Part shown: one piece after another, positions 35,153-45,304 of the stretch
Position numbering within the stretch: the stretch's first letter is position 1
Layout: each line of letters opens with the position of its first letter
Source: a plasmid
Sequence record: NZ_CP024426.1
Strand: one strand, 5' to 3'
DNA: 64,000 nt
The notes under the pieces: model-generated
The model's database searches: none
What the model was told of the DNA's origin: nothing
Seen by the model: only the letters and a program-made list of their open reading frames with translations
Translations under genes and position numbers: made by a program

Positions 35153-36244
35153 TCAGGGCCGTTCCGGCGGACCGGGGCGGCGCAGGCGCCCGACCAGCAG
35201 CAGTGCCAGCGCGCCGACCAGCACCAGCCCGTGACCGGGCGCGGCCGGCTGGGCAGCCTGGGCAGGGGCAGGCGCGGCGGGCATCGGCGCGGGGTCCTTC
35301 GGCGGCGTGGAGGCGGGGGCGGCCTGATCAAAGACCGAACTGTGCGCGTCTCCGGCGGCGCCGGAATCCTGCCGCTCGATTTCGGAATTCAGCTCTGCCC
35401 CCATCAGCATGGCATAGGCCGAAACCCACAGCCAGGTCAGCAGGATGACCACGCCGCCCAAGGCGCCATAGGTTTCCGTGTAGCTGCCGAAGTAGCGCGC
35501 ATAAAGCGAAAAGCCCACGGTGCCCGCGATCCACAGTGCCGTGCCCAGCACCGCCCCCGGGCTGATCCAGCGCCAGCCGGCCGAGCGCTTGGCCGGCCCG
35601 ATCCGATAGACCAGCGCAAATCCCAGCACCGCGATCCCGGCCAGGATCGGCCAGCGCAGCCACAGCAGACCCGAACCTGCCGCCTGCGTGTCGCCCAGTG
35701 CCGGCAGGACCGGCAGCAGCACGACCACGCCGATGGCCAGCGCCATGCCCACGATCAGCCCCAGCGTCAGGGCGAAGGCCGTCGCGTAAAGCCGGACGAT
35801 GCCACGGGTTTCCTGTTCGCCATAGGCGATGTTGAGCCCCTCGATCAGGGTCAGGATGCTTTTCATCGCGCCATAGACGGCGATGGCAAAGCCCGCCAGC
35901 GCGACGAACCCGGTCGCGGTGTTCTCGCCGCCCGCGACCTTCGTCACCTGGTCGCCGATGATCGCCCCGGCGCTTTCGGGCAGGACGGCGACCAGGTCCG
36001 ACACCTCGCCCGCGACCTCGGCCGGGTCCAGGATCAGCCCCGCGACCGAGATGAAGGCCGCGATCGCCGGAAAGATCGACAGCAGCGTATAGAAGGCGAT
36101 GCCCGCCGCCACGACCCCGATGTGATCCTGCGAGATCTGCTCGCGCAGGCGCGACAGGATCGCCTTCCACCCGGCCAGATCCCGGTGCCAGGCATTGCCG
36201 CCCCCGGCTTTCGATTGCGTTCCCGCCGTGCGTGTCGTTGCCAT
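35153..36244 (-). CDS. YihY/BrkB-family inner-membrane protein
   Basis: YihY signature (GIAFYTLLSIFPA), about 6 TM segments; start MATTRTAG at the complement of 36242-36244. Confidence 0.8.
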   Translation of the reverse strand: MATTRTAGTQSKAGGGNAWHRDLAGWKAILSRLREQISQDHIGVVAAGIAFYTLLSIFPAIAAFISVAGLILDPAEVAGEVSDLVAVLPESAGAIIGDQVTKVAGGENTATGFVALAGFAIAVYGAMKSILTLIEGLNIAYGEQETRGIVRLYATAFALTLGLIVGMALAIGVVVLLPVLPALGDTQAAGSGLLWLRWPILAGIAVLGFALVYRIGPAKRSAGWRWISPGAVLGTALWIAGTVGFSLYARYFGSYTETYGALGGVVILLTWLWVSAYAMLMGAELNSEIERQDSGAAGDAHSSVFDQAAPASTPPKDPAPMPAAPAPAQAAQPAAPGHGLVLVGALALLLVGRLRRPGPPERP

Positions 36245-36433
36245 CGCCTGTCCCCCGCTTCTGGTCCGCCCGGGCAAGGGGCGCGCGGAATTCAACGTCC
36301 ACGCCACCGCCGGAAGTTCCCCGGACCACGCAAGATCCGGTGGAGCCGGGGAAAACCGGCAACAGCCCCCCGTCATCGCTGTTTTCAGCAACGGTTTTTC
36401 GTGCTATGCTGGTGGGGTTGTTAGGAGGTGCGA

Positions 36434-36541
36434 ATGAAACCCCTGGTTCTTTTCCTGACGTTGACCTTTTCCCTGATTGGTGCCCTGGACAGCGGCCCGG
36501 CCCACGCCGGACCTTGCAATCCCAACGTCCAACGCTGCTGA
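36434..36541 (+). CDS. 35-codon secreted peptide precursor: Sec-type signal peptide plus a 10-aa mature peptide GPCNPNVQRC with two cysteines
   Basis: AGGAGG Shine-Dalgarno 5 nt before the ATG; MKPLVLFLTLTFSLIGALDSGPAHA|GPCNPNVQRC has an n/h/c signal-peptide layout with an AHA-G cleavage site; it is followed by a GC-rich hairpin and T-tract (36556-36597). Below the 60-aa ORF-track threshold. Confidence 0.45.
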   Translation: MKPLVLFLTLTFSLIGALDSGPAHAGPCNPNVQRC

Positions 36542-36612
36542 ACGACTCCGGCGCCGACCCCTGGGGCCGGCGCCCGGTTTTCCGTATTTGTTAATCGGTA
36601 TTCGGAGGCCCC

Positions 36613-39600
36613 ATGGCAGACCCATGGCCGGCCGAGGTGCCCGCGTCCCTGTGGACCTTCAACCAGCTTTCCGCCGAAGAGGTGGTGCAGGTCCCCATGA
36701 TGGGCGTCAAATTCGCCTCGGGCTTCTTGTACGCCTTTGCCTTTGGCTGCATTTTCATCGCGGTTTTCGCCTGGCAAAGATTTCGCATCAAGACGGTGGT
36801 GAAATCCCCGTCGCGCGCCCTGACCCAGCTTGGGCCCAATGACCTTGGCGGCCAGGCTGCCCTGATCCGGGCCTATTTCATCTATGCGGGCTCGATCCTG
36901 CTGCTTTATGTCTCGTTGACGTTCTTTGGCAAGCTGCTGGTGCAGATGGCCCGCCTGGTGCCTGCCATCGGCATCGACGCCTATGCAGACAAGCTGCGCT
37001 TCGACAGCCCGCAATGGCCGCTGATGCTGGCATTCGGCTTTGCAGGCCTGGCGCAGATGCTGCCCCCGGTCGCCGCGATCGAAGGCTGGCTGCGGCTGCG
37101 CGCCTATCGCGCGGTGGGCATCCCGGTGCGGCTGGAACAGACCATGCGCAACCTGATCGTGACCCTGGAGCGCGCGGGGCCGAAAGGCGACCTAGAGGAA
37201 TCCCCGCTGGGCAAGGCGCTGTCATGCTATCGCGCGCAATGGGACGGGATAATCAAAGGCCACGCCTGGGCGGGCGCCTGGGCGCGGCGGCGCGCGAGCC
37301 GCGCGCAGGACCTGGTTTCGCTGTTGTCGCAGCTTGAACTGCTGGTGTCCTGGTCCAAAAGCAAGCGCGGCAGCTGGCCGGGACACGAGGTGTCCCAGAC
37401 CGTGCGCGACCTTGAGGAAACCTATGTCCGCGAAAGCGGAGACCTGCTGAACGAATTCCAGCAGCGCATGAGCGAACCGCCCGAGATCGACGACAGGCGC
37501 CTGTCCGGCACCCGCGAGGCCCGGTTGGACGATTATCTTAACACGACGTTCAGCAAAGCCGAAGGCTTGCGCCATGACTTGGTGGGAATCCTTGCGATCT
37601 TTCTGGAACGCGACATCGACAGCCCCGACCGCACTGATGACTTCAAGGATCACAGCTATACGGACCCTGCCCTGCACGCGCTTCTGATCAAGACCGCGCG
37701 GGCGGACAGCGCGGGGACAGGCCCGGAATCGGGGCTGTTCGCCGCCCTGATCGCCGTCTTCGTCCTGTGCGCCGCCGCGGCTTGGCGGGGACTGCAGGAT
37801 CCGGTGGGGCAATATGTCGAGCGGACGAACCTTTACGGGATGCTGATCTCGGCGCTGGTGGAAACGCTGCGCCTGGCTTCCCTGACCTGGCTGCCGCTTC
37901 TTGCCGCATTTTCGCTGCGCCAATACCTGTGGGACAACGGCGACTGGGCCCGCGCGCGCTACAGCACCAAGCCCGATCACTATGCCGGGCAGATCCTAGT
38001 CTGCACGTCGCTTGGCGTTGCGACAGGTGTGCTGGGACTGGTTCTGGTGGCTGCGCTGAAGGCGTTCTTCATTGCCACAAACCGCGAGTATTTTGCCGAA
38101 TTGCTGGCGGGGGGCCCCGCGCCGTTCCTGCTTTACTATCCGACGCAGGCGATCATCCTGCCCGCGCTGATCCCCCTGGCCATCTATTCCGCCGATCTAA
38201 GCAAGACCCCGCACCGCCGGCTGATCTGGGGTGTCGTGGCGGCCCTGGTGATCGGGACGCTATGGCTTGCCCATGCAACCTACTGGAACGGGACCGTCCT
38301 GATCCGCGACTGCGTGTCCGCGACCGCAATTCTGACCGAGGCCTGCGTCCGCCGGATGGACCTGATAAGCCATCTGGCCCTGATGACACTGACCTTTCTG
38401 GCGGTCGGCATCTTTGGCGACCTGCCCGAGCGGCGCCGCGCGAATGTCCGTGAACGCGAGCGGACCGGGACAGGCGTCGAAAGCGCCGCCGGTCTGGCAT
38501 TGCTGGCGATGCTGTTCCCGATGCTGGTCTTGGCGCCAACGTCAGCCCGCGCCGAGCCCGAGCCGGTTCGCATCGGGTTTCGCTTCGACATCGCGCCATT
38601 TTCCTATCGGAATGAAGCAAGCGGCCCGCGCCAGTTCCACGGCTATCTGGCCGATATGTGCTTTGACATCTTCGACGGCTATCCCGCCTACAAGGTCGAG
38701 GCCGTGCCCGTCGGGGCGAAAGACCGCTTCGACATGTTCAACGCGGGTAACGTGGATCTCTTGTGCGACGCCGTTACCATGCGGTTTTCCGAACGCGACC
38801 GATCCGAAAAGGGGATCTATTCACCCATCGTCTTCGTATCGGGCGTGTCCTATCTGGAAACGGGCAACCGCAATGTCGGGGCGGTCGCTCTGGGCTTCGT
38901 GCTGAACGCGACGGCGCGGGACGTTGCGCTCAAGACCTGCCATGTGGACCAGTTTCGGGTCTTCATGCCGGATACGCGGGCGCTGCTGGTGGAACGCTGC
39001 AACCTGCGCTGGCAGGCGGCATTGCTGGCCCAGCGTTTGCTGAACGAACCAAGCATCGTGCAAAGCCCCGCAAGCCAGATCGCGGTCACGCAGGTCGATC
39101 CACGCCGGCGCGCATCCCTTGATGCTGTCATGGAGTCTTGGCGTCGCCTGCACGAGGACTGGGAAACGCTTCACCAAAGGGCCGAAAATCTGAACACGAT
39201 GGTCCAGGACCAGAACATCACGCGGTTGAGCACCGCCACCACGGCACTGATCAAAACCGTGCTGAGTGACGGGAACGGTATCCAGACCTGCCTGGACAGC
39301 CTAGGGAGGAACGCTGCGGTCTGCGCCGAGGCCAGCAAAGCCCTGTCCGACCCGCGTTGCGGCGGGATCGCCGACAAGAACGCCTCTGCCAAGGCACCGG
39401 CCGATGCGAACATCCCCTTTGAGCAGCGCATATGGGACGATTACAGTTTTTGCCCCATGTCCGACCACGGCGCGCTGATCAAGTGGTTCTGCACATCCGG
39501 CAAGGACCTGCGCCGAGTCTATCTGGGCGACCGCGAGCTGATCGTCGCCAAGCGCGACGCCTGGGCGCGCGACATCGGTTCATGCCCGGTGCAGCGGGCC

Positions 39601-39897
39601 GAGGGGGCCGAGTTCCTGTCCTATGAGCCTTATGCATTTCTGGTTCAAAGGAAAAAGCCCGCCCTGGCGGCCTTCGTCCAGCAGCGGGTCTATGAGCTGT
39701 TTTCGAACCGCGCCCAGATGATCGCGCGCTTCAACGCCAGCTTTTCCAGGAAGGATGCTTCCGGCAGCGGCCAGCCGGATGTTCGCATGTCCGTGCCTCT
39801 GGCCTATCTGTTCCTGCTGAACGCCGTCGAGAACGACACGCTGTTCCTGCCGAACGCCGATCTGTCGCCGGAAGCGGCGGCGGGGAACCGCCCTTAG
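36613..39897 (+). CDS. Large polytopic membrane protein with a periplasmic-type solute-binding (SBP_bac_3-like) domain and a C-terminal Cys-rich domain
   Basis: About 10 predicted TM helices in two clusters (aa 30-140 and 370-620); then a signal-anchor-like segment LALLAMLFPMLVLAPTSARA; then a family-3 SBP-like domain (RIGFRFDIAPFSYRN...GYLADMCFDIF...DLLCDAVTM); C-terminal 200 aa with at least 7 Cys. Local GC is visibly lower than in the flanks. Confidence 0.8.
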   Translation: MADPWPAEVPASLWTFNQLSAEEVVQVPMMGVKFASGFLYAFAFGCIFIAVFAWQRFRIKTVVKSPSRALTQLGPNDLGGQAALIRAYFIYAGSILLLYVSLTFFGKLLVQMARLVPAIGIDAYADKLRFDSPQWPLMLAFGFAGLAQMLPPVAAIEGWLRLRAYRAVGIPVRLEQTMRNLIVTLERAGPKGDLEESPLGKALSCYRAQWDGIIKGHAWAGAWARRRASRAQDLVSLLSQLELLVSWSKSKRGSWPGHEVSQTVRDLEETYVRESGDLLNEFQQRMSEPPEIDDRRLSGTREARLDDYLNTTFSKAEGLRHDLVGILAIFLERDIDSPDRTDDFKDHSYTDPALHALLIKTARADSAGTGPESGLFAALIAVFVLCAAAAWRGLQDPVGQYVERTNLYGMLISALVETLRLASLTWLPLLAAFSLRQYLWDNGDWARARYSTKPDHYAGQILVCTSLGVATGVLGLVLVAALKAFFIATNREYFAELLAGGPAPFLLYYPTQAIILPALIPLAIYSADLSKTPHRRLIWGVVAALVIGTLWLAHATYWNGTVLIRDCVSATAILTEACVRRMDLISHLALMTLTFLAVGIFGDLPERRRANVRERERTGTGVESAAGLALLAMLFPMLVLAPTSARAEPEPVRIGFRFDIAPFSYRNEASGPRQFHGYLADMCFDIFDGYPAYKVEAVPVGAKDRFDMFNAGNVDLLCDAVTMRFSERDRSEKGIYSPIVFVSGVSYLETGNRNVGAVALGFVLNATARDVALKTCHVDQFRVFMPDTRALLVERCNLRWQAALLAQRLLNEPSIVQSPASQIAVTQVDPRRRASLDAVMESWRRLHEDWETLHQRAENLNTMVQDQNITRLSTATTALIKTVLSDGNGIQTCLDSLGRNAAVCAEASKALSDPRCGGIADKNASAKAPADANIPFEQRIWDDYSFCPMSDHGALIKWFCTSGKDLRRVYLGDRELIVAKRDAWARDIGSCPVQRAEGAEFLSYEPYAFLVQRKKPALAAFVQQRVYELFSNRAQMIARFNASFSRKDASGSGQPDVRMSVPLAYLFLLNAVENDTLFLPNADLSPEAAAGNRP

Positions 39898-39934: not shown

Positions 39935-42900
39935 ATGAAGCTGCAGATCCACGGCCAAAAGCAGGTCCCGGTCGACGAGACGCCGGCAGCAAACGGGGCC
40001 GTTACCGTCGAGGTCAAGGACAGGGTCACCGTGACCGGCCTCCGCGGCGATGCCCTGCCGGTGCAGATCGACCTGCCGCCGGACCATGTGCTGGAACTGC
40101 AGATGGAGGGCGAGGGCGCCCCCCGCCTGCTGCTGCGCGGGGACGAGGCGCAGGCCCTGCTGGCGGGCGGCGCGGCGATGACCCGCGACGGCGCGGGCGA
40201 CGATCTGCTGGTGCTGCCGACCCATCTGCAGCTTGACCCGCCCGCGCGCGGTCGCCGCGGTCTGGACCGGGGACTGCTGGCCTGGGCGGTTAAGACCGTC
40301 CAGGTGCTCAAGGTCGATGGCAAGCCCGCCGAGGCAGCCCGCCAGCTTGAGGATCAGAACCCCGCGCTGGGGCTGAACCGCTGGCTGCCCGACGGCACGC
40401 TGGAGCCCCTTGCCCCCGGCACCGCAGCCGAGGGCAAGACCTGGCTTTTGTTCCTGCACGGCACGGCCTCTTCGACGCTGGAGGGCTTTGGCAAGCTGAT
40501 CGGGGCGCAGCCGGCGATCTGGCGCCAGCTGCATGCGACCTACCCCGGACGGGTGCTGGCCTTCGACCACCGCACCCTGACCGAGGATCCGATCCAGAAC
40601 GCCACGACGCTGCTGGCGGCGCTGCCTCCGGACATCACTCTGCACCTTGTCAGCCACAGCCGCGGCGGGCTGGTGGGCGAATTGCTGGCCCGGCCGCAAC
40701 TGGTCGCGCCGGGCACCGACACGGTGTTCGACCCGGCCGAGGTGCAGGAACTGGCCGAACGGGACCGCCCTGCGGCCGAGGAACTGGGCCAGGCGCTGGT
40801 CGCTAGCGGGGTGCGGGTCACGCGCTTTGTCCGGGTGGCCTGCCCGGCGCGCGGCACCGACCTTGCCGGTGGCCGGCTGGACCGCTGGCTGAACCTGCTG
40901 TTCAACCTGGTGCAGCAAACGATCGACCCCCTGGCCATCGACGATGCTGTGAAGCGCAAGGTCGAGGGGCTGCGGCGGCTGGCCTTGGCGGCCTCGGCCG
41001 GGAAAGACAACCCCGACGCCCTGCCCGGCATCGCGGCCATGGCGCCGGATTCGTCCCCGCTGCTGGCCATCCTGAACCGCCGCCCCGCCAACCCCGCCCC
41101 GCCCCAGGACGAAGCCCCCGCACAGGACGGGCTGGTCGTCATCGGCGGCGACGCCGAGCCGGCGGGCGTCGTCAAGCGCCTGCTGGTCTGGCTGGCCGAC
41201 GCGCTGCTCCAGGGAGAGAACGACCTGGTGGTGGAAACCGGCTCGGTCGGGGGCGGGACGCCCCGCGCCGTGGCCCCGCCCCTGGTGCTGGATCGCGGGC
41301 CGCAGGTCGATCATTCGCGCTTCTTCGCCAACGACCGGACCGCGCAGGCGATGCTGCTGGGATTGCGCGACCCCGCCCTGCTGAGAGAGGGCTCGGTCCC
41401 CTCGCTGCCCGAGCAGATGCGCGAGGCCGAGGCCAGGCTGCGCAGCACGATCCGCTCGGCCGATGCCGCGCCTTTTCTGTCGCGGGGCCGGGGCACGCCA
41501 CTGGCCGTTATACTGCCTGGGATCACCGGCAGCCACCTTGCCGTGGGGAAGAATCGCGTCTGGGTCAGCCCTTTCGGCATCTGCACGCGGGGCGTGAAGT
41601 CCCTGGCGCTCGGCAAGACGCAGATCACGGAAGACGGGGTGGTCGGGCTTTACTACGGCGCGCTTTGCGATCATCTGGCGCGCAGCCACGAGGTCGTGGC
41701 CATGCCTTATGACTGGCGCCTGTCCCTGCAGGACCTGGGCGCCCGCCTGGCGGCAAGGCTGACGGCCCTGCTGGCCCAGGACGACAGCCGCCCGCTTCAC
41801 ATCGTCGGCCATTCGATGGGCGGGCTGGTCGCGCGCATGGCGCTGGCCCAGTCGCCCGAGCTGATGCGCGGCTTTCTGGCCCATCCCGAATCGCGCTTGC
41901 TGATGCTGGGGACGCCGAACGGCGGGTCCTGGCAGATGGGGCTGGCGCTGTTGGGACGGACCCGGACGGTCAAGGCGCTGGCCCTGCTCAGCCCGCATGA
42001 CGACATCGGCGACATCACCGCCATCCTGCGCGAATGGCCCGGCGCGGTGCAGCTTTTGCCGCCCGAGCTGCTGGTCCCGGAACCCTGGGCGGGATTTGAC
42101 GCCGAAGCGCCCTCGGCCCAGGCTTTGGCCTTGGCGGCGCAGGCCCAGGTCCTGCTGCGGGACAAGGCGGGCATTCCGAAAGGCCGCAGCCTTTACGTCG
42201 CCGGGATGGGCGATACCTGCGCCGAGCTTCTTGTCGTCGATGGCGCGTTGAGCATGCGGGTTTCGCCCGAGGGCGACGGCACCGTCTTGTGGCGCACCGG
42301 CATCCCCGACGGGGTCCCGGTCTGGTATGCGCCGTCGGAACACGGCGACCTGTGCAAGGACGCCTATCTGCATCCGGCAATCGCCGACCTGCTGCTGCGG
42401 GGAACGACCACCCTGCTGTCGGACCGGCCGGGCCGGCGCGGGGCGACTGCCGCAGTGGCGGCCACCCAGGTCGTCCCGGCCACGGAGGTTCTGCCCCTGA
42501 TCCCTTCGGGCCCGCAGCTGCTGGCGATGGCCATGGGGGCCAGCCCGCCCGCGCTGCTGGACCGCTCGGCCCCCAGCCCCGAGGTCCGCGTGACCGTGGT
42601 CCACGGCAACCTGGAGTTCGCGCGCCACCCGATTCTGGTCGGCCACAACCTGGGCGATCCGATCATGGGGGCCGAGGCGGCGCTGGACCGCAGCCTGAAC
42701 GGCAGGCTCAGCCGGCGCAATGCGCGCGGCCTGCACCCCGGCATCATCGAAAGCTGGGATGTGCATGTGGAACCCGTCACCACGACCGATGCGGGCGGCG
42801 CGGCGGGCACGGGCCTGCGGGGCGGCATCGTGGTGGGGCTGGGCGTCGCCTCGGCACTGACCACGGGCAGCCTGATGCGGACCATCCGCTGCGGTCTGCT

Positions 42901-45304
42901 GGCCTATGCCGACGCCGTCCAGCAGACCGACACGGACCGGCGCGCCCTGGCCGTTTCGGTGGTGTTGCTGGGCAGCGGCAGCGGCATGATCGCGGTCGCC
43001 GACAGCGTCAACGCCATCCTGAACGCGGTCGACCAGGCCAACCGCCTGCTGGAAACCGAGCCTGCCGGCGCGGTCCCGGGCGACGAGCCCCTGCGCTTTA
43101 CCGAGATCGAGATCATCGAGTCGGTCGAACAGATCGCCGTCACCGCCTGGCACTCGGCGCGCGGCCGCATCACCCGCCTGCCCGGCCGCTTCGCCCTGGC
43201 CGGCCGGCTGGAGCAGGGGCGTGGCGGCTGGCGCCGGACCGGCCCCGAAACCGCGCCCGACTGGTGGATGGAGGTGTCGATCACCTCGGACCCGCCCGAG
43301 CCGGCCGCGCCCGGCCAGCCCGGCCGCGAAGGCCCGCTGCGCTATCTGCTGGTGGACGGGCGCGCCCGGGTCGAGGCCAAGGTGGTCGCCACCAGCCGCC
43401 GGCTGGTCGGGCACTATGTCTCGATGATCCCGGACAGCGTGGGCATGGCGGACCCGCGGGGCCTGTCGCCGGGGCGGACGCTGTTTGAACTGCTGTGGCC
43501 CGCAGAGCTGAAGCAGCACAGCATCGAGGACCGCAACCTGCGCTTGGTTCTGGACCGCGAGACGGCTGCGATCCCGTGGGAGATGCTGGACGACCGCCGC
43601 CCCGCGCGCGACGGCTTCGGCGAAGAGGTCCTGATGGCGACCAAGCCCCCGTCCGTGCGCTACGGGGTGCTGCGCCAGCTGTTGGCGCAACGCGAGCGTC
43701 CGCTTCGGCCTCTGGGCGGCGGCAACCGGCAGGCGCTGGTCATCGGCGATCCGCGCGGGGGCGGCAGCACGCTGCCCACCCTGCCCGGCGCCCGGGCCGA
43801 GGCCGAAGCGGTCGCAGGTCTGCTGGAGGCGGCAGGCTATGGCGTGACGCGCATGATCGGCGACACCGCCACCCCGGACCAGGTGATCGCCGCGCTGTTC
43901 TCGCGCGTGTGGGACGTGATCCATGTGGCCAGCCACGGCGTCCTTGACTGGCAACCCACCCCCGACCAGCCGCCGCGCACCGGGATCGTGCTGGGCGCGC
44001 CGCCGCTGGACGTGATCGAATCCGGCATCCTGGCGCAACTGCCCGAGCCGCCGGCGCTGGCCTTTCTGAACTGTTGCCACCTGGGCAGCATCCCCGAAAG
44101 CGACCGTCACCTGCGCCGCGACCGGCCGGCCCTGGCCGCAAGCCTGGCGGTCGAACTGATCGAGGCGGGCTGCCCCGCCGTGGTCGCCTGCGGCTGGGCC
44201 GTCGACGACGGCTCCGCCATGCGCTTTGCCCGCACGCTTTACACCGATCTTTGCGGCGGCCAGAACTTTGGCGCCGCCGTGCGCCATGCGCGCGAGGTGG
44301 CCCATGACGGCGCCACCACCGACAACACCTGGGGCGCCTATCAGTGCTATGGGCATCCGGGCTTTGCGCTGTCGCTTGCGCCCAGGGGCTGGACCGAGGC
44401 CACGCCGGACGCCGCCTCTCCGTCCGAGGCGGTGGCGGTTCTGCAGCGCCTGAGCACCTGCGCCACCGCCCCGCCTGCGCCGCTGTCCGGCGATCCCGCC
44501 GGGACCCAGCGCCTGCGCCAGGACTTCTTGGCCACGCGCGAGGCCGATTTGATCCGCCTGGGCAAGTTCGAGGAGGACATCCGCAGGAACGGCTGGGCCG
44601 ACCGCTCGGATGTGGCAAGCGCGCTTGGCGATGCCTATGCCGCCTGCGGCGACATCACCAGCGCCGTCGATGCCTATCGCCGCGCGGCCATGGCCGAGAC
44701 GCTGACCCTGCCGGTGCGCGCGCTGCAGGACCGATTTGCGCTGCCTTTGCGCCTGCCGAAGGATGACGCCAACGAACTGCGCGCCGCGGTCCAGGCGATG
44801 GGCCTGCTGAACACCGCCTGCGGCCCCAGCCCGCAGCGGCTGGAACTGATCGCGGGCCTGCACCTGCGCCTGGCCGCCCTGGAAAGCCAGGCCAAGCCCC
44901 GGAACGCCGCGCTGGACCAGGCCCTGGACGCGCTGAACGAGGCGCATGATCTGGCCACCCAAGGCGGCAGCGTTGCCGCGGCCGGGCGTATCGCGCTGCG
45001 GCGGCTGCTGGCGGCCATCCTGCGCGGCAAGAATGCGGCCGACACGGCAACGGCCGCCGGGGCGGCGCTGGCGGCCTTGCCACGGGACGACCCGCAGCGC
45101 CCGCTGGCGCTGTTCCTGCAGGCGCTGGCGCAGGGCGACACGAATGCAATCGCCGCCCTGCCCCGGGACGACGCCCTTCAAGCCCTGGACTCCGACACGC
45201 TGTGGACCCTGGCCGAGGCGGCGCGGCTGGCCGGGGACTGCCTGACCGGATCCTTGGGCGATGCGGCCAAGGCCTGCGCCCGCGACCTGTCGATGCTGAT
45301 CTAG
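39935..45304 (+). CDS. 1789-aa multidomain protein: N-terminal domain, two lipase-like alpha/beta-hydrolase modules, CHAT (caspase-like) protease domain, C-terminal helical (TPR-like) repeats
   Basis: GxSxG nucleophile elbows LHLVSHSRGGLVGELL and LHIVGHSMGGLVARMAL (Lipase_2/PGAP1-like); CHAT hallmarks VIHVASHGVLDW (His) and ALAFLNCCHLGS (Cys), about 160 aa apart; Ala/Leu-rich helical repeat tail; no signal peptide; RBS AGGAG before the ATG at 39935; 37-nt gap from the upstream gene. Confidence 0.85.
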   Translation: MKLQIHGQKQVPVDETPAANGAVTVEVKDRVTVTGLRGDALPVQIDLPPDHVLELQMEGEGAPRLLLRGDEAQALLAGGAAMTRDGAGDDLLVLPTHLQLDPPARGRRGLDRGLLAWAVKTVQVLKVDGKPAEAARQLEDQNPALGLNRWLPDGTLEPLAPGTAAEGKTWLLFLHGTASSTLEGFGKLIGAQPAIWRQLHATYPGRVLAFDHRTLTEDPIQNATTLLAALPPDITLHLVSHSRGGLVGELLARPQLVAPGTDTVFDPAEVQELAERDRPAAEELGQALVASGVRVTRFVRVACPARGTDLAGGRLDRWLNLLFNLVQQTIDPLAIDDAVKRKVEGLRRLALAASAGKDNPDALPGIAAMAPDSSPLLAILNRRPANPAPPQDEAPAQDGLVVIGGDAEPAGVVKRLLVWLADALLQGENDLVVETGSVGGGTPRAVAPPLVLDRGPQVDHSRFFANDRTAQAMLLGLRDPALLREGSVPSLPEQMREAEARLRSTIRSADAAPFLSRGRGTPLAVILPGITGSHLAVGKNRVWVSPFGICTRGVKSLALGKTQITEDGVVGLYYGALCDHLARSHEVVAMPYDWRLSLQDLGARLAARLTALLAQDDSRPLHIVGHSMGGLVARMALAQSPELMRGFLAHPESRLLMLGTPNGGSWQMGLALLGRTRTVKALALLSPHDDIGDITAILREWPGAVQLLPPELLVPEPWAGFDAEAPSAQALALAAQAQVLLRDKAGIPKGRSLYVAGMGDTCAELLVVDGALSMRVSPEGDGTVLWRTGIPDGVPVWYAPSEHGDLCKDAYLHPAIADLLLRGTTTLLSDRPGRRGATAAVAATQVVPATEVLPLIPSGPQLLAMAMGASPPALLDRSAPSPEVRVTVVHGNLEFARHPILVGHNLGDPIMGAEAALDRSLNGRLSRRNARGLHPGIIESWDVHVEPVTTTDAGGAAGTGLRGGIVVGLGVASALTTGSLMRTIRCGLLAYADAVQQTDTDRRALAVSVVLLGSGSGMIAVADSVNAILNAVDQANRLLETEPAGAVPGDEPLRFTEIEIIESVEQIAVTAWHSARGRITRLPGRFALAGRLEQGRGGWRRTGPETAPDWWMEVSITSDPPEPAAPGQPGREGPLRYLLVDGRARVEAKVVATSRRLVGHYVSMIPDSVGMADPRGLSPGRTLFELLWPAELKQHSIEDRNLRLVLDRETAAIPWEMLDDRRPARDGFGEEVLMATKPPSVRYGVLRQLLAQRERPLRPLGGGNRQALVIGDPRGGGSTLPTLPGARAEAEAVAGLLEAAGYGVTRMIGDTATPDQVIAALFSRVWDVIHVASHGVLDWQPTPDQPPRTGIVLGAPPLDVIESGILAQLPEPPALAFLNCCHLGSIPESDRHLRRDRPALAASLAVELIEAGCPAVVACGWAVDDGSAMRFARTLYTDLCGGQNFGAAVRHAREVAHDGATTDNTWGAYQCYGHPGFALSLAPRGWTEATPDAASPSEAVAVLQRLSTCATAPPAPLSGDPAGTQRLRQDFLATREADLIRLGKFEEDIRRNGWADRSDVASALGDAYAACGDITSAVDAYRRAAMAETLTLPVRALQDRFALPLRLPKDDANELRAAVQAMGLLNTACGPSPQRLELIAGLHLRLAALESQAKPRNAALDQALDALNEAHDLATQGGSVAAAGRIALRRLLAAILRGKNAADTATAAGAALAALPRDDPQRPLALFLQALAQGDTNAIAALPRDDALQALDSDTLWTLAEAARLAGDCLTGSLGDAAKACARDLSMLI

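Follow-up and report, generated by a model that had tools for sequence, protein, structure and literature searches.

The 64,000-nucleotide stretch of plasmid DNA analysed here (record NZ_CP024426.1; hereafter the window) comes from Paracoccus yeei, being 99% identical to NZ_CP038053, NZ_CP020445.2 and related records, and carries a 35-codon open reading frame (ORF) in front of the gene for a membrane protein of 1094 amino acids (aa). Comparison across genomes marks this ORF as a genuine gene. It co-occurs strictly with its partner gene, in the same orientation, and represents a previously undescribed peptide family with a dedicated partner. Its product is predicted to be a secreted decapeptide closed by a disulfide, and we put at somewhat better than even (a probability of roughly 0.55) the reading that this peptide is the dedicated periplasmic ligand of the adjacent Venus-flytrap domain, through which it would control a novel membrane/cytoplasmic module.

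The gene lies downstream of a divergent YihY/BrkB-family gene on the minus strand. Its ATG stands at 36434 and its TGA at 36539-36541, and the product, read and translated from the window, is MKPLVLFLTLTFSLIGALDSGPAHAGPCNPNVQRC; the start codon, the product and the AGGAGG 5 nt upstream are all as the first-pass annotation of this DNA had described them. The locus comprises the following features:

36434-36541, plus strand: peptide gene, 35 sense codons and TGA, supported by translation and by in-frame homologues 5' of all intact homologues of the partner gene.
36434-36508, plus strand: predicted signal peptide MKPLVLFLTLTFSLIGALDSGPAHA, codons 1-25, from the n/h/c layout and the cleavage-site pattern of the family; cleavage predicted after AHA.
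36509-36538, plus strand: mature core GPCNPNVQRC, from the family motif; Cys3-Cys10 disulfide predicted.
36423-36428, plus strand: Shine-Dalgarno sequence AGGAGG with a 5-nt spacer to the ATG, read from the sequence.
36402-36410, plus strand: extended -10 element TGCTATGCT, 24-32 nt 5' of the ATG, recurring across homologous loci; promoter function presumed.
36548-36581, plus strand: terminator-like GC-rich hairpin (36548-36577) followed by TTTT (36578-36581), from a terminator scan; folding energy -20.8 kcal/mol.
36613-39897, plus strand: gene for the 1094-aa partner (the putative 'receptor'), with its own GGAGG in front.
39935-45304, plus strand: gene for a 1789-aa DUF7379 / LCAT-like alpha/beta-hydrolase / CHAT protein, from Pfam.

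No second ORF of this kind was found in the window by a six-frame motif search. The ORF had been called unannotated, which is true of the RefSeq gene tables of three Paracoccus plasmids: none carries a coding sequence (CDS) for it in the interval from brkB/yihY to the 1094-aa gene. A large public collection of automated gene calls does include the identical 35-aa product, and a few homologues have been deposited under the name 'hypothetical protein'.

Evidence that the ORF is a gene comes from its conservation. Homologues of the 1094-aa protein were collected and 33 genome loci were fetched, with relatives at 25-99% identity, from Paracoccus, Rhizobium, Mycoplana, Mesorhizobium, Ensifer, Phaeobacter, Heliomarina, Amaricoccus, Poseidonocella, Frigidibacter, Thermohalobaculum and several metagenome-assembled genomes (MAGs). 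An ORF of 33-45 aa lies on the same strand, 45-200 nt 5' of the partner gene, in every one of the 30 loci with a full-length homologue, and is also present in additional loci in which the partner is split or allelic; partner identity among peptide-bearing loci goes down to 25%. The conservation upstream of homologues of the 1094-aa gene that the first-pass annotation had proposed to look for is thus borne out. It had also named, as an outcome that would tell against the gene, conservation of the nucleotide hairpin alone, and we find the reverse: the ORF is kept and the hairpin is lineage-specific. Furthermore, a profile search of 5.8 billion proteins returned about 30 further peptide clusters, all unnamed or 'hypothetical' and none with a Pfam domain. 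The family comprises 50 distinct precursors with 35 distinct cores.

Among the codons of the core, third positions vary freely under constant amino acids (GGA/GGG/GGC/GGT for Gly, CCT/CCG/CCC/CCA for Pro and CGC/CGA/AGA for Arg), and Nei-Gojobori counts over the ten core codons give proportions of 0.70 for synonymous (pS) and 0.23 for nonsynonymous (pN) differences. Because variation is mostly synonymous and pS exceeds pN, selection acts on the peptide sequence and not on an RNA element; these counts show purifying selection on the amino acids themselves. A known RNA element was likewise rejected as an explanation, a scan of 35800-37200 against Rfam having given a chance-level match only. That match, to the Pseudomonas small RNA P4 at 35903-35998 on the minus strand, lies inside brkB and scores 15.8 bits against a gathering score of 37 (E 0.22); it is almost certainly due to chance.

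The sole locus devoid of the peptide ORF belongs to a Paenirhodobacter MAG (L035, 5500-8116), where the partner gene is missing its first ~150 codons, encoding transmembrane (TM) helices 1-3, and abuts a PG-binding-domain gene. It is probably a remnant or an assembly artefact, and was ruled out as a counter-example to the linkage because the partner gene is truncated at its 5' end and abuts another gene. No curated family describes the peptide: there was no match in NCBIfam (E up to 1), PADLOC or Pfam, and a full-text literature search with motif strings of the peptide (GPCNPN and similar) returned no paper. Phage origin was also rejected, there being no relative among 2.9 million viral contigs.

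The precursors follow a common plan, namely Met with Lys or Arg, a hydrophobic stretch, small-x-Ala, the motif G-P-C-[ND]-P-x-[VIL]-Q-x-C, and the stop codon. The window peptide has K2 followed by PLVLFLTLTFSLIGAL, which together form the charged n-region and hydrophobic h-region of a Sec signal, and a basic residue (K/R/H) occurs within residues 2-5 in all 50 precursors. When the cut is placed at the conserved Ala before the core (n=40), Ala occupies -1 in 38 of 40 sequences, A/V/T/S/L occupies -3 in 35 of 40, Gly occupies +1 in 35 of 40, and the mature length is 10-12 residues in 38 of 40. The site in the window, AHA|G, has small residues at -3/-1 and no Pro at +1, as is usual for signal peptidase I (SPase I). 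Conversely, the sequences do not resemble the lipobox of signal peptidase II, since Pro precedes the first Cys in 45 of 50 (AGP-C, GNP-C and others).

Besides Met1, the two Cys are the only invariant residues of the peptide, with a C-X6-C spacing in 47 of 50 precursors and the second Cys as the last residue in 37 of 50. Of these 47 rings, 24 have Asn and 23 have Asp at position 2, 46 have Pro at position 3, 43 have V/I/L at position 5 and 35 have Gln at position 6. A short-ring C-X4-C subfamily, found in Rhizobium leguminosarum L244 (...APNMCRQQTCPT, CRQQTC; L019, 6819-6929) and Sinorhizobium meliloti (...AHAGPCQVQTCG, CQVQTC; L046, 2796-2903), is devoid of the Asx-Pro element and retains Q-T-C. 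Signal layout, Cys spacing and linkage together support the proposal that this is a secreted two-cysteine peptide tied to the downstream membrane-protein gene.

The further suggestion of a precursor resembling a ribosomally synthesised and post-translationally modified peptide (RiPP) is not supported: the neighbours vary, and no radical SAM, MNIO/DUF692, YcaO, LanM/lanthipeptide, ATP-grasp or peptidase-ABC gene is conserved nearby. The Pfam families DUF692 (MNIO) and DUF2063 are missing from all called neighbours. From the established rules for SPase I and Dsb we infer signal-peptide cleavage and disulfide formation as the sole maturation steps, for which the calculated mass of the oxidised GPCNPNVQRC is 1084.4542 Da.

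The partner is a rare, uncharacterised membrane protein of Alphaproteobacteria with a periplasmic binding domain. Hydropathy and AlphaFold models (predicted local distance difference test, pLDDT, of 81 for the full protein and 86 for residues 1-620) suggest the order of three TM helices, a cytoplasmic helical domain, six TM helices, an Arg-rich cytoplasmic loop and a TM anchor. The cytoplasmic helical domain, of ~215 residues (~157-372), starts with an invariant RAYRAVGIPVR, and residues 1-620 together with the anchor would make up a ~10-TM / cytoplasmic-helical module. The anchor (622-642) has an AxA-like end and is followed by a C-terminal domain (~650-1075) that has the two lobes of a class-F / type-II amino-acid solute-binding protein (SBP), that is, a Venus flytrap; the marginal Pfam match of the protein is to SBP_bac_3. 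Eight Cys are invariant in this SBP-like domain and one more, C578, in the adjoining periplasmic loop. T722 and R724, both invariant, fall within the segment that aligns to the carboxylate-binding stretch of Glu/Asp-binding protein; this alignment would fit recognition of the free C-terminus of the peptide, and we offer it only as a lead.

Roseobacters (Sedimentitalea, Sulfitobacter and Alloyangia) and some MAGs possess a split partner, in which the peptide gene comes first and is followed by genes for a membrane protein of 677-693 aa and an SBP-like protein of 315-384 aa; over the loci L040 (8001-11258), L042 (8001-11331), L038 (4778-7960) and L032 (6986-10242) the two sizes are 650-690 and 315-440 aa. 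The stop and start codons of the two overlap, and the SBP-like protein has a Sec signal peptide of its own in L038, L040 and L042. Since the separate SBP-like protein carries a Sec signal, the binding domain is periplasmic, and this is the compartment to which the peptide would be sent. As for the membrane domain, residues 1-620 gave no fold match in the PDB, none in BFVD and none in Pfam at E up to 5 on sub-domains.

We propose that the 35-aa pre-peptide would be exported via Sec and cut by SPase I after Ala25, and that periplasmic oxidation would then join Cys3 to Cys10 and close a rigid Asx-Pro-turn ring. The decapeptide would bind the periplasmic, amino-acid-SBP-like flytrap domain of the protein encoded downstream, and whether that domain is occupied would determine the state of the 10-TM / cytoplasmic-helical module attached to it. 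Domain and module are fused in most species, and in roseobacters the domain is a separate secreted protein. In Paracoccus, giant cytoplasmic CHAT or caspase/lipase proteins are coupled to the module. The binding itself, and the direction and nature of the output, are what we infer. Nevertheless, a role as signalling ligand is the best-supported reading of the peptide, short of proof, because the linkage is absolute over wide divergence, because peptide and binding domain share one compartment, because the binding fold is one that sensors use, because the rigid conserved epitope ends in a free carboxylate, and because neither transporter nor modification genes are present. Peptide and partner most likely constitute a previously undescribed peptide-receptor pair in Alphaproteobacteria.

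Several observations weigh against this reading. The label 'receptor' is a functional guess, and the membrane domain matches no known fold; nor does the protein contain a recognisable output domain (no kinase, GGDEF or similar). Identical cores (GPCDPNLQRC, for example) are paired with receptors that are only ~50% identical. When ring positions were compared with receptor columns by mutual information, the top columns simply followed phylogeny, so that the comparison offers no evidence of ligand-receptor co-evolution. Additionally, the usual ligands of class-F SBPs are amino acids rather than peptides of 1 kDa.

The genes that surround the pair differ between lineages. In the window, a 37-nt gap separates the receptor gene from that of the 1789-aa CHAT protein, which has neither signal peptide nor TM segment and is cytoplasmic. 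A CHAT giant directly follows the receptor only in L007, L009-L012, L043 and L051; its hosts are Paracoccus yeei, siganidrum, litorisediminis, simplex, binzhouensis and TOH, and in Paracoccus sp. TOH (L051, 12382-17685) the end of the receptor gene and the start of the CHAT gene overlap by 4 nt. The DUF7379-CHAT family (seen in the window, L051, L052 and L053) numbers over 1000 clusters that span many phyla and lack the peptide module, and elsewhere stands beside TIR, caspase and Amidase_2 genes; certain members bear N-terminal TIR_2 fusions. Its context elsewhere resembles that of conflict systems. As part of the conserved unit the CHAT gene was rejected, being confined to one Paracoccus group while the family is widespread without the module.

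Other lineages have other giants and hydrolases. P. lichenicola and P. aerius carry divergent giants with GDSL-lipase, caspase (Peptidase_C14) and Peptidase_M15 domains. In Mycoplana azooxidifex the genes downstream encode a translationally coupled, uncharacterised 354-aa protein, an 823-aa GDSL + Amidase_3 + M15 protein and a 944-aa trypsin-like protein, and S. meliloti has a divergent GDSL-amidase-M15 protein like that of Mycoplana. Ensifer/Sinorhizobium loci contain Amidase_2/PG_binding and DUF900 hydrolase genes, and the P. broussonetiae locus has a subtilase neighbour. The giants and hydrolases were seen at L033 (1215-6593, minus strand), L034 (442-3792, minus), L022 (11323-16546, plus) and L046 (1-1231, minus), and upstream in L024 and L048; the N-terminus of the 823-aa protein of L022 has no signal peptide. 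Altogether, ~12 of ~35 loci adjoin protease, lipase or peptidoglycan-hydrolase proteins, and the remainder lie among unrelated housekeeping genes (FtsK, NAD synthase, DprA). The conserved functional unit is the peptide, the membrane module and the binding domain, to which conflict-type effectors are lineage-specific additions.

Within P. yeei the receptor exists as strongly diverged alleles. A second P. yeei-type locus (L043) has the synteny of the window and flanks that are 97-100% identical; over the body of the receptor gene (~36700-39850, against 10270-13340 in L043) nucleotide identity ranges from 38 to 91%. Synonymous divergence (dS) between the two is 0.76 for the receptor, 0.03 for the CHAT gene and 0.02 for brkB, and the ratio of nonsynonymous to synonymous divergence (dN/dS) for the receptor is 0.35, with the two partner proteins 64% identical. 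The signal sequence of the peptide is the same in both loci, and the mature parts are GPCNPNVQRC and GPCDPNIQRC, the two differences (N4D, V7I) falling at variable ring positions. This pattern indicates an ancient or imported receptor allele kept in an otherwise homogeneous plasmid rather than recent positive selection, and is what would be expected under balancing selection, for example at specificity or conflict loci. Another locus, from P. yeei CCUG 32053 (L049, NZ_CP031079.1, 2113-5396), is 98% identical overall and has its receptor annotated as two overlapping CDS, one a 481-aa 'hypothetical' protein and the other a 616-aa 'transporter substrate-binding domain-containing protein', which suggests a frameshift or inactivation.

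It is tempting to speculate that the peptide is a token of envelope integrity, although we regard this as unlikely. A cyclic peptide made by the cell for its own periplasm would then report the state of the envelope to a conflict or cell-death system. Porins may not let a peptide of 1.1 kDa escape freely, so that the flytrap would stay liganded, and the 10-TM module silent, only for as long as Sec export and Dsb oxidation work and the outer-membrane barrier is unbroken. Phage attack, a breach of the envelope or a shut-off of translation would deplete the peptide, and the unliganded receptor would either act as a membrane effector itself or release the neighbouring CHAT/caspase, lipase and peptidoglycan-hydrolase giants of Paracoccus, Mycoplana and Sinorhizobium. 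The ancient, balanced receptor alleles of P. yeei would on this account reflect an arms race at the surface exposed to the periplasm.

Another doubtful possibility, to which we give slightly less credence, is that the peptide is cargo. Alone, or loaded with metal through its thiols and Asn/Asp/Gln side chains, it would be captured by the SBP domain and moved inward across the inner membrane by the 10-TM domain; it would then be a periplasmic shuttle or metallophore of the cell's own making, served by a dedicated SBP-dependent secondary transporter. An SBP with a polytopic membrane protein is indeed the classic layout of a transporter, the fused and separate forms of the SBP are both found in known SBP-dependent transporters, and two invariant Cys with a conserved N/D and Q could coordinate metal. 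Among conserved neighbours there are no ABC, TRAP or TTT permease or ATPase genes of the kind that mark SBP-dependent transport. Bufferins are known Sec-exported, Cys-rich, metal-binding peptides (PMC11626156) and count in favour of the idea. Along with other RiPPs that use a Sec signal in place of a RiPP leader, they resemble our family in being small, Cys-containing and periplasmic. What defines their loci, however, is the presence of MNIO (DUF692) and DUF2063 partner genes together with thiooxazole modification (PMC11626156), whereas our locus has neither gene.

Marginally less probable again is an accessory subunit or redox reporter, in which the peptide would stay bound to the Cys-rich periplasmic domain, or swap disulfides with it, and so act as a small regulatory subunit reporting periplasmic redox or Dsb state in the manner of MgrB-PhoQ instead of as a reversible, diffusible ligand. 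The eight invariant Cys of the SBP-like domain with C578 in the adjoining loop, the restriction of invariance in the peptide to its two Cys besides Met1, and the strict genetic linkage all speak for this, and MgrB offers a precedent: it is a protein of <50 aa whose conserved periplasmic Cys are needed to modulate the sensor. The conserved P, N/D-P, V/I/L and Q, on the other hand, indicate recognition of a specific shape and not mere thiol chemistry. Furthermore, MgrB retains its TM helix and its gene does not lie with that of PhoQ, whereas here the linkage is absolute and the conserved AxA site, which predicts a soluble 10-mer, speaks against an MgrB-like subunit anchored in the membrane. The data do not sharply separate this explanation from the ligand model.

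We consider it improbable that the product is antimicrobial, be it a small bacteriocin, a microcin or a modified, RiPP-like precursor whose membrane protein would provide immunity, export or modification. A short leader with a Cys-containing core next to a large membrane protein invites the comparison, as does the strong allelic divergence of the membrane protein within one species, which recalls some toxin/immunity loci. The lack of conserved RiPP-type enzyme or peptidase-ABC exporter genes nearby speaks against it. So does the core itself, which is strongly conserved across orders where bacteriocin cores usually diversify, and which differs at only 2 residues between alleles whose partners are 64% identical.

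GGAG-like motifs occur within 20 nt upstream of the peptide start (mostly at -9 to -14) in 27 of 33 homologous loci. Of 29 non-redundant loci, 18 have the pattern TGnTAnnnT between -28 and -52, most often between -31 and -34, whereas 500 shuffled controls averaged 2.0 and never exceeded 7. A dedicated promoter directly 5' of the peptide gene is therefore likely; the predicted 5' untranslated region would be ~17 nt. The promoter suggested earlier, TTCAGC (36384-36389), a 15-nt spacer and TATGCT (36405-36410), is present and survives in part: TATGCT lies within the conserved extended -10, and the proposed -35 finds no support, matching the consensus at 3 of 6 positions with a spacer of 15 nt. 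A generic sigma-70 scan calls no promoter at this site.

The hairpin between the two genes, ccggcgccgacccctggggccggcgcccgg followed by TTTTCCGTAT, with only 4 consecutive T, was flagged by a terminator scan, and its reading as a terminator or attenuator is plausible for this lineage and does not extend to the family: hairpins of -12 kcal/mol or better occur in 15 of 31 loci, with a T-rich tail as well in 6 of 31, and the 80-nt intergenic region of the window folds no better than shuffles (z -0.22). The tail of the second P. yeei allele, TTTTCGTATT, has 7 T in 10 against 6 in the window, and its alignment places an extra T at 36577 and a C-to-T change at 36582 that would extend the T-run. The element is probably a partial terminator or messenger RNA (mRNA) stabiliser between peptide and receptor genes, and may be a local device that raises the ratio of peptide to receptor transcript, not a defining part of the system. 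The peptide gene has an extended -10 promoter of its own and a strong ribosome-binding site, and in this lineage the hairpin and T-run would probably leave more peptide mRNA than receptor mRNA. In the minimum-free-energy fold of 36536-36615, the receptor GGAGG (36603-36608) pairs with CUCCG (36546-36550) just past the peptide stop. This fold is a minor member of the ensemble (frequency 0.033), no better than shuffles; such pairing could couple translation of the receptor to that of the peptide.

An arrest peptide of the SecM/VemP kind, or an attenuation leader acting through the hairpin, whose product would have no function, is very improbable. A signal peptide with a conserved C-terminal motif ending at the stop does recall arrest peptides, and both the hairpin between the genes and the pairing of the receptor GGAGG with CUCC after the peptide stop could be read in this way. 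A chain of 33-45 aa, however, would lie wholly inside the ribosomal tunnel at termination, leaving no co-translational pulling on the signal peptide; the secretion monitors SecM, MifM and VemP are 95-170 aa long. Neither is the downstream gene a protein-export factor. We consider a SecM-like leader excluded on account of this length and of the nature of the downstream gene. Additionally, the hairpin is not conserved, the fold that masks the Shine-Dalgarno sequence is the minor one described above, and arrest would leave unexplained both the invariant Cys pair at fixed spacing and the conserved AxA. Finally, a chance ORF in GC-rich intergenic DNA, which the very short length, the abundance of spurious ORFs in high-GC genomes and the absence from the RefSeq annotations viewed might suggest, is effectively refuted by the comparative data, the ORF being in frame in every intact locus across two orders with synonymous variation and a conserved start context, ribosome-binding site and promoter element.

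To return to the peptide as ligand, the systems closest in their working are the SBP-coupled sensors (LuxP-LuxQ, TorT-TorS, the Venus-flytrap domains of BvgS/EvgS, and GluR0) and the pheromone pairs of Gram-positive bacteria. The locus differs from LuxPQ, TorTS, BvgS and GluR0 in that its membrane part is neither a histidine kinase nor a channel pore and has a fold without a PDB relative, and in that a neighbouring gene, not metabolism, supplies the presumed ligand. With agr AIP-AgrC, ComX-ComP and cCF10-PrgZ it shares a short secreted peptide encoded beside a sensor gene, Cys-based macrocyclisation and divergent receptor alleles within one species; PrgZ and OppA are themselves SBPs that bind pheromone. 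The adjacency typical of such pairs holds in every intact locus, given that the neighbour is a receptor. Unlike the agr and Com systems, this one would require only the general Sec, SPase I and Dsb machinery, closes its ring by a disulfide and not a thiolactone, operates in a Gram-negative periplasm and keeps its peptide nearly unchanged between receptor alleles; moreover, no HATPase/HisKA, TPR-regulator, AgrB, ComQ, ComAB-like or peptidase-ABC genes or domains were found at these loci. Peptides of the STa/guanylin type resemble it in Sec export, Dsb-dependent disulfides and a receptor ligand of 10-20 residues as the product, but STa has a pro-region, three disulfides and a host receptor, and the sequences are unrelated (no match in Pfam or NCBIfam).

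Taken together, the locus would pair the gene of a secreted peptide with an adjoining gene for its cognate sensor, the peptide belonging to an undescribed family and the membrane module having no recognised fold. Dedicated gene-encoded peptide ligands are textbook knowledge in Gram-positive bacteria and, to our knowledge, have hardly been described in Proteobacteria. The pair is a tractable candidate: the predicted ligand is a 10-residue disulfide peptide that can be synthesised, and the presumed receptor domain has a well-understood fold and is naturally soluble in roseobacters. Its hosts include plant symbionts (Rhizobium, Ensifer, Mesorhizobium), marine roseobacters and the opportunistic human pathogen P. 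yeei. Whatever its function, a conserved 35-codon gene has been systematically missed by the standard annotation checked here. Should the ligand model prove true, it would add a new family of small bacterial peptides and a new route of input into conflict systems.

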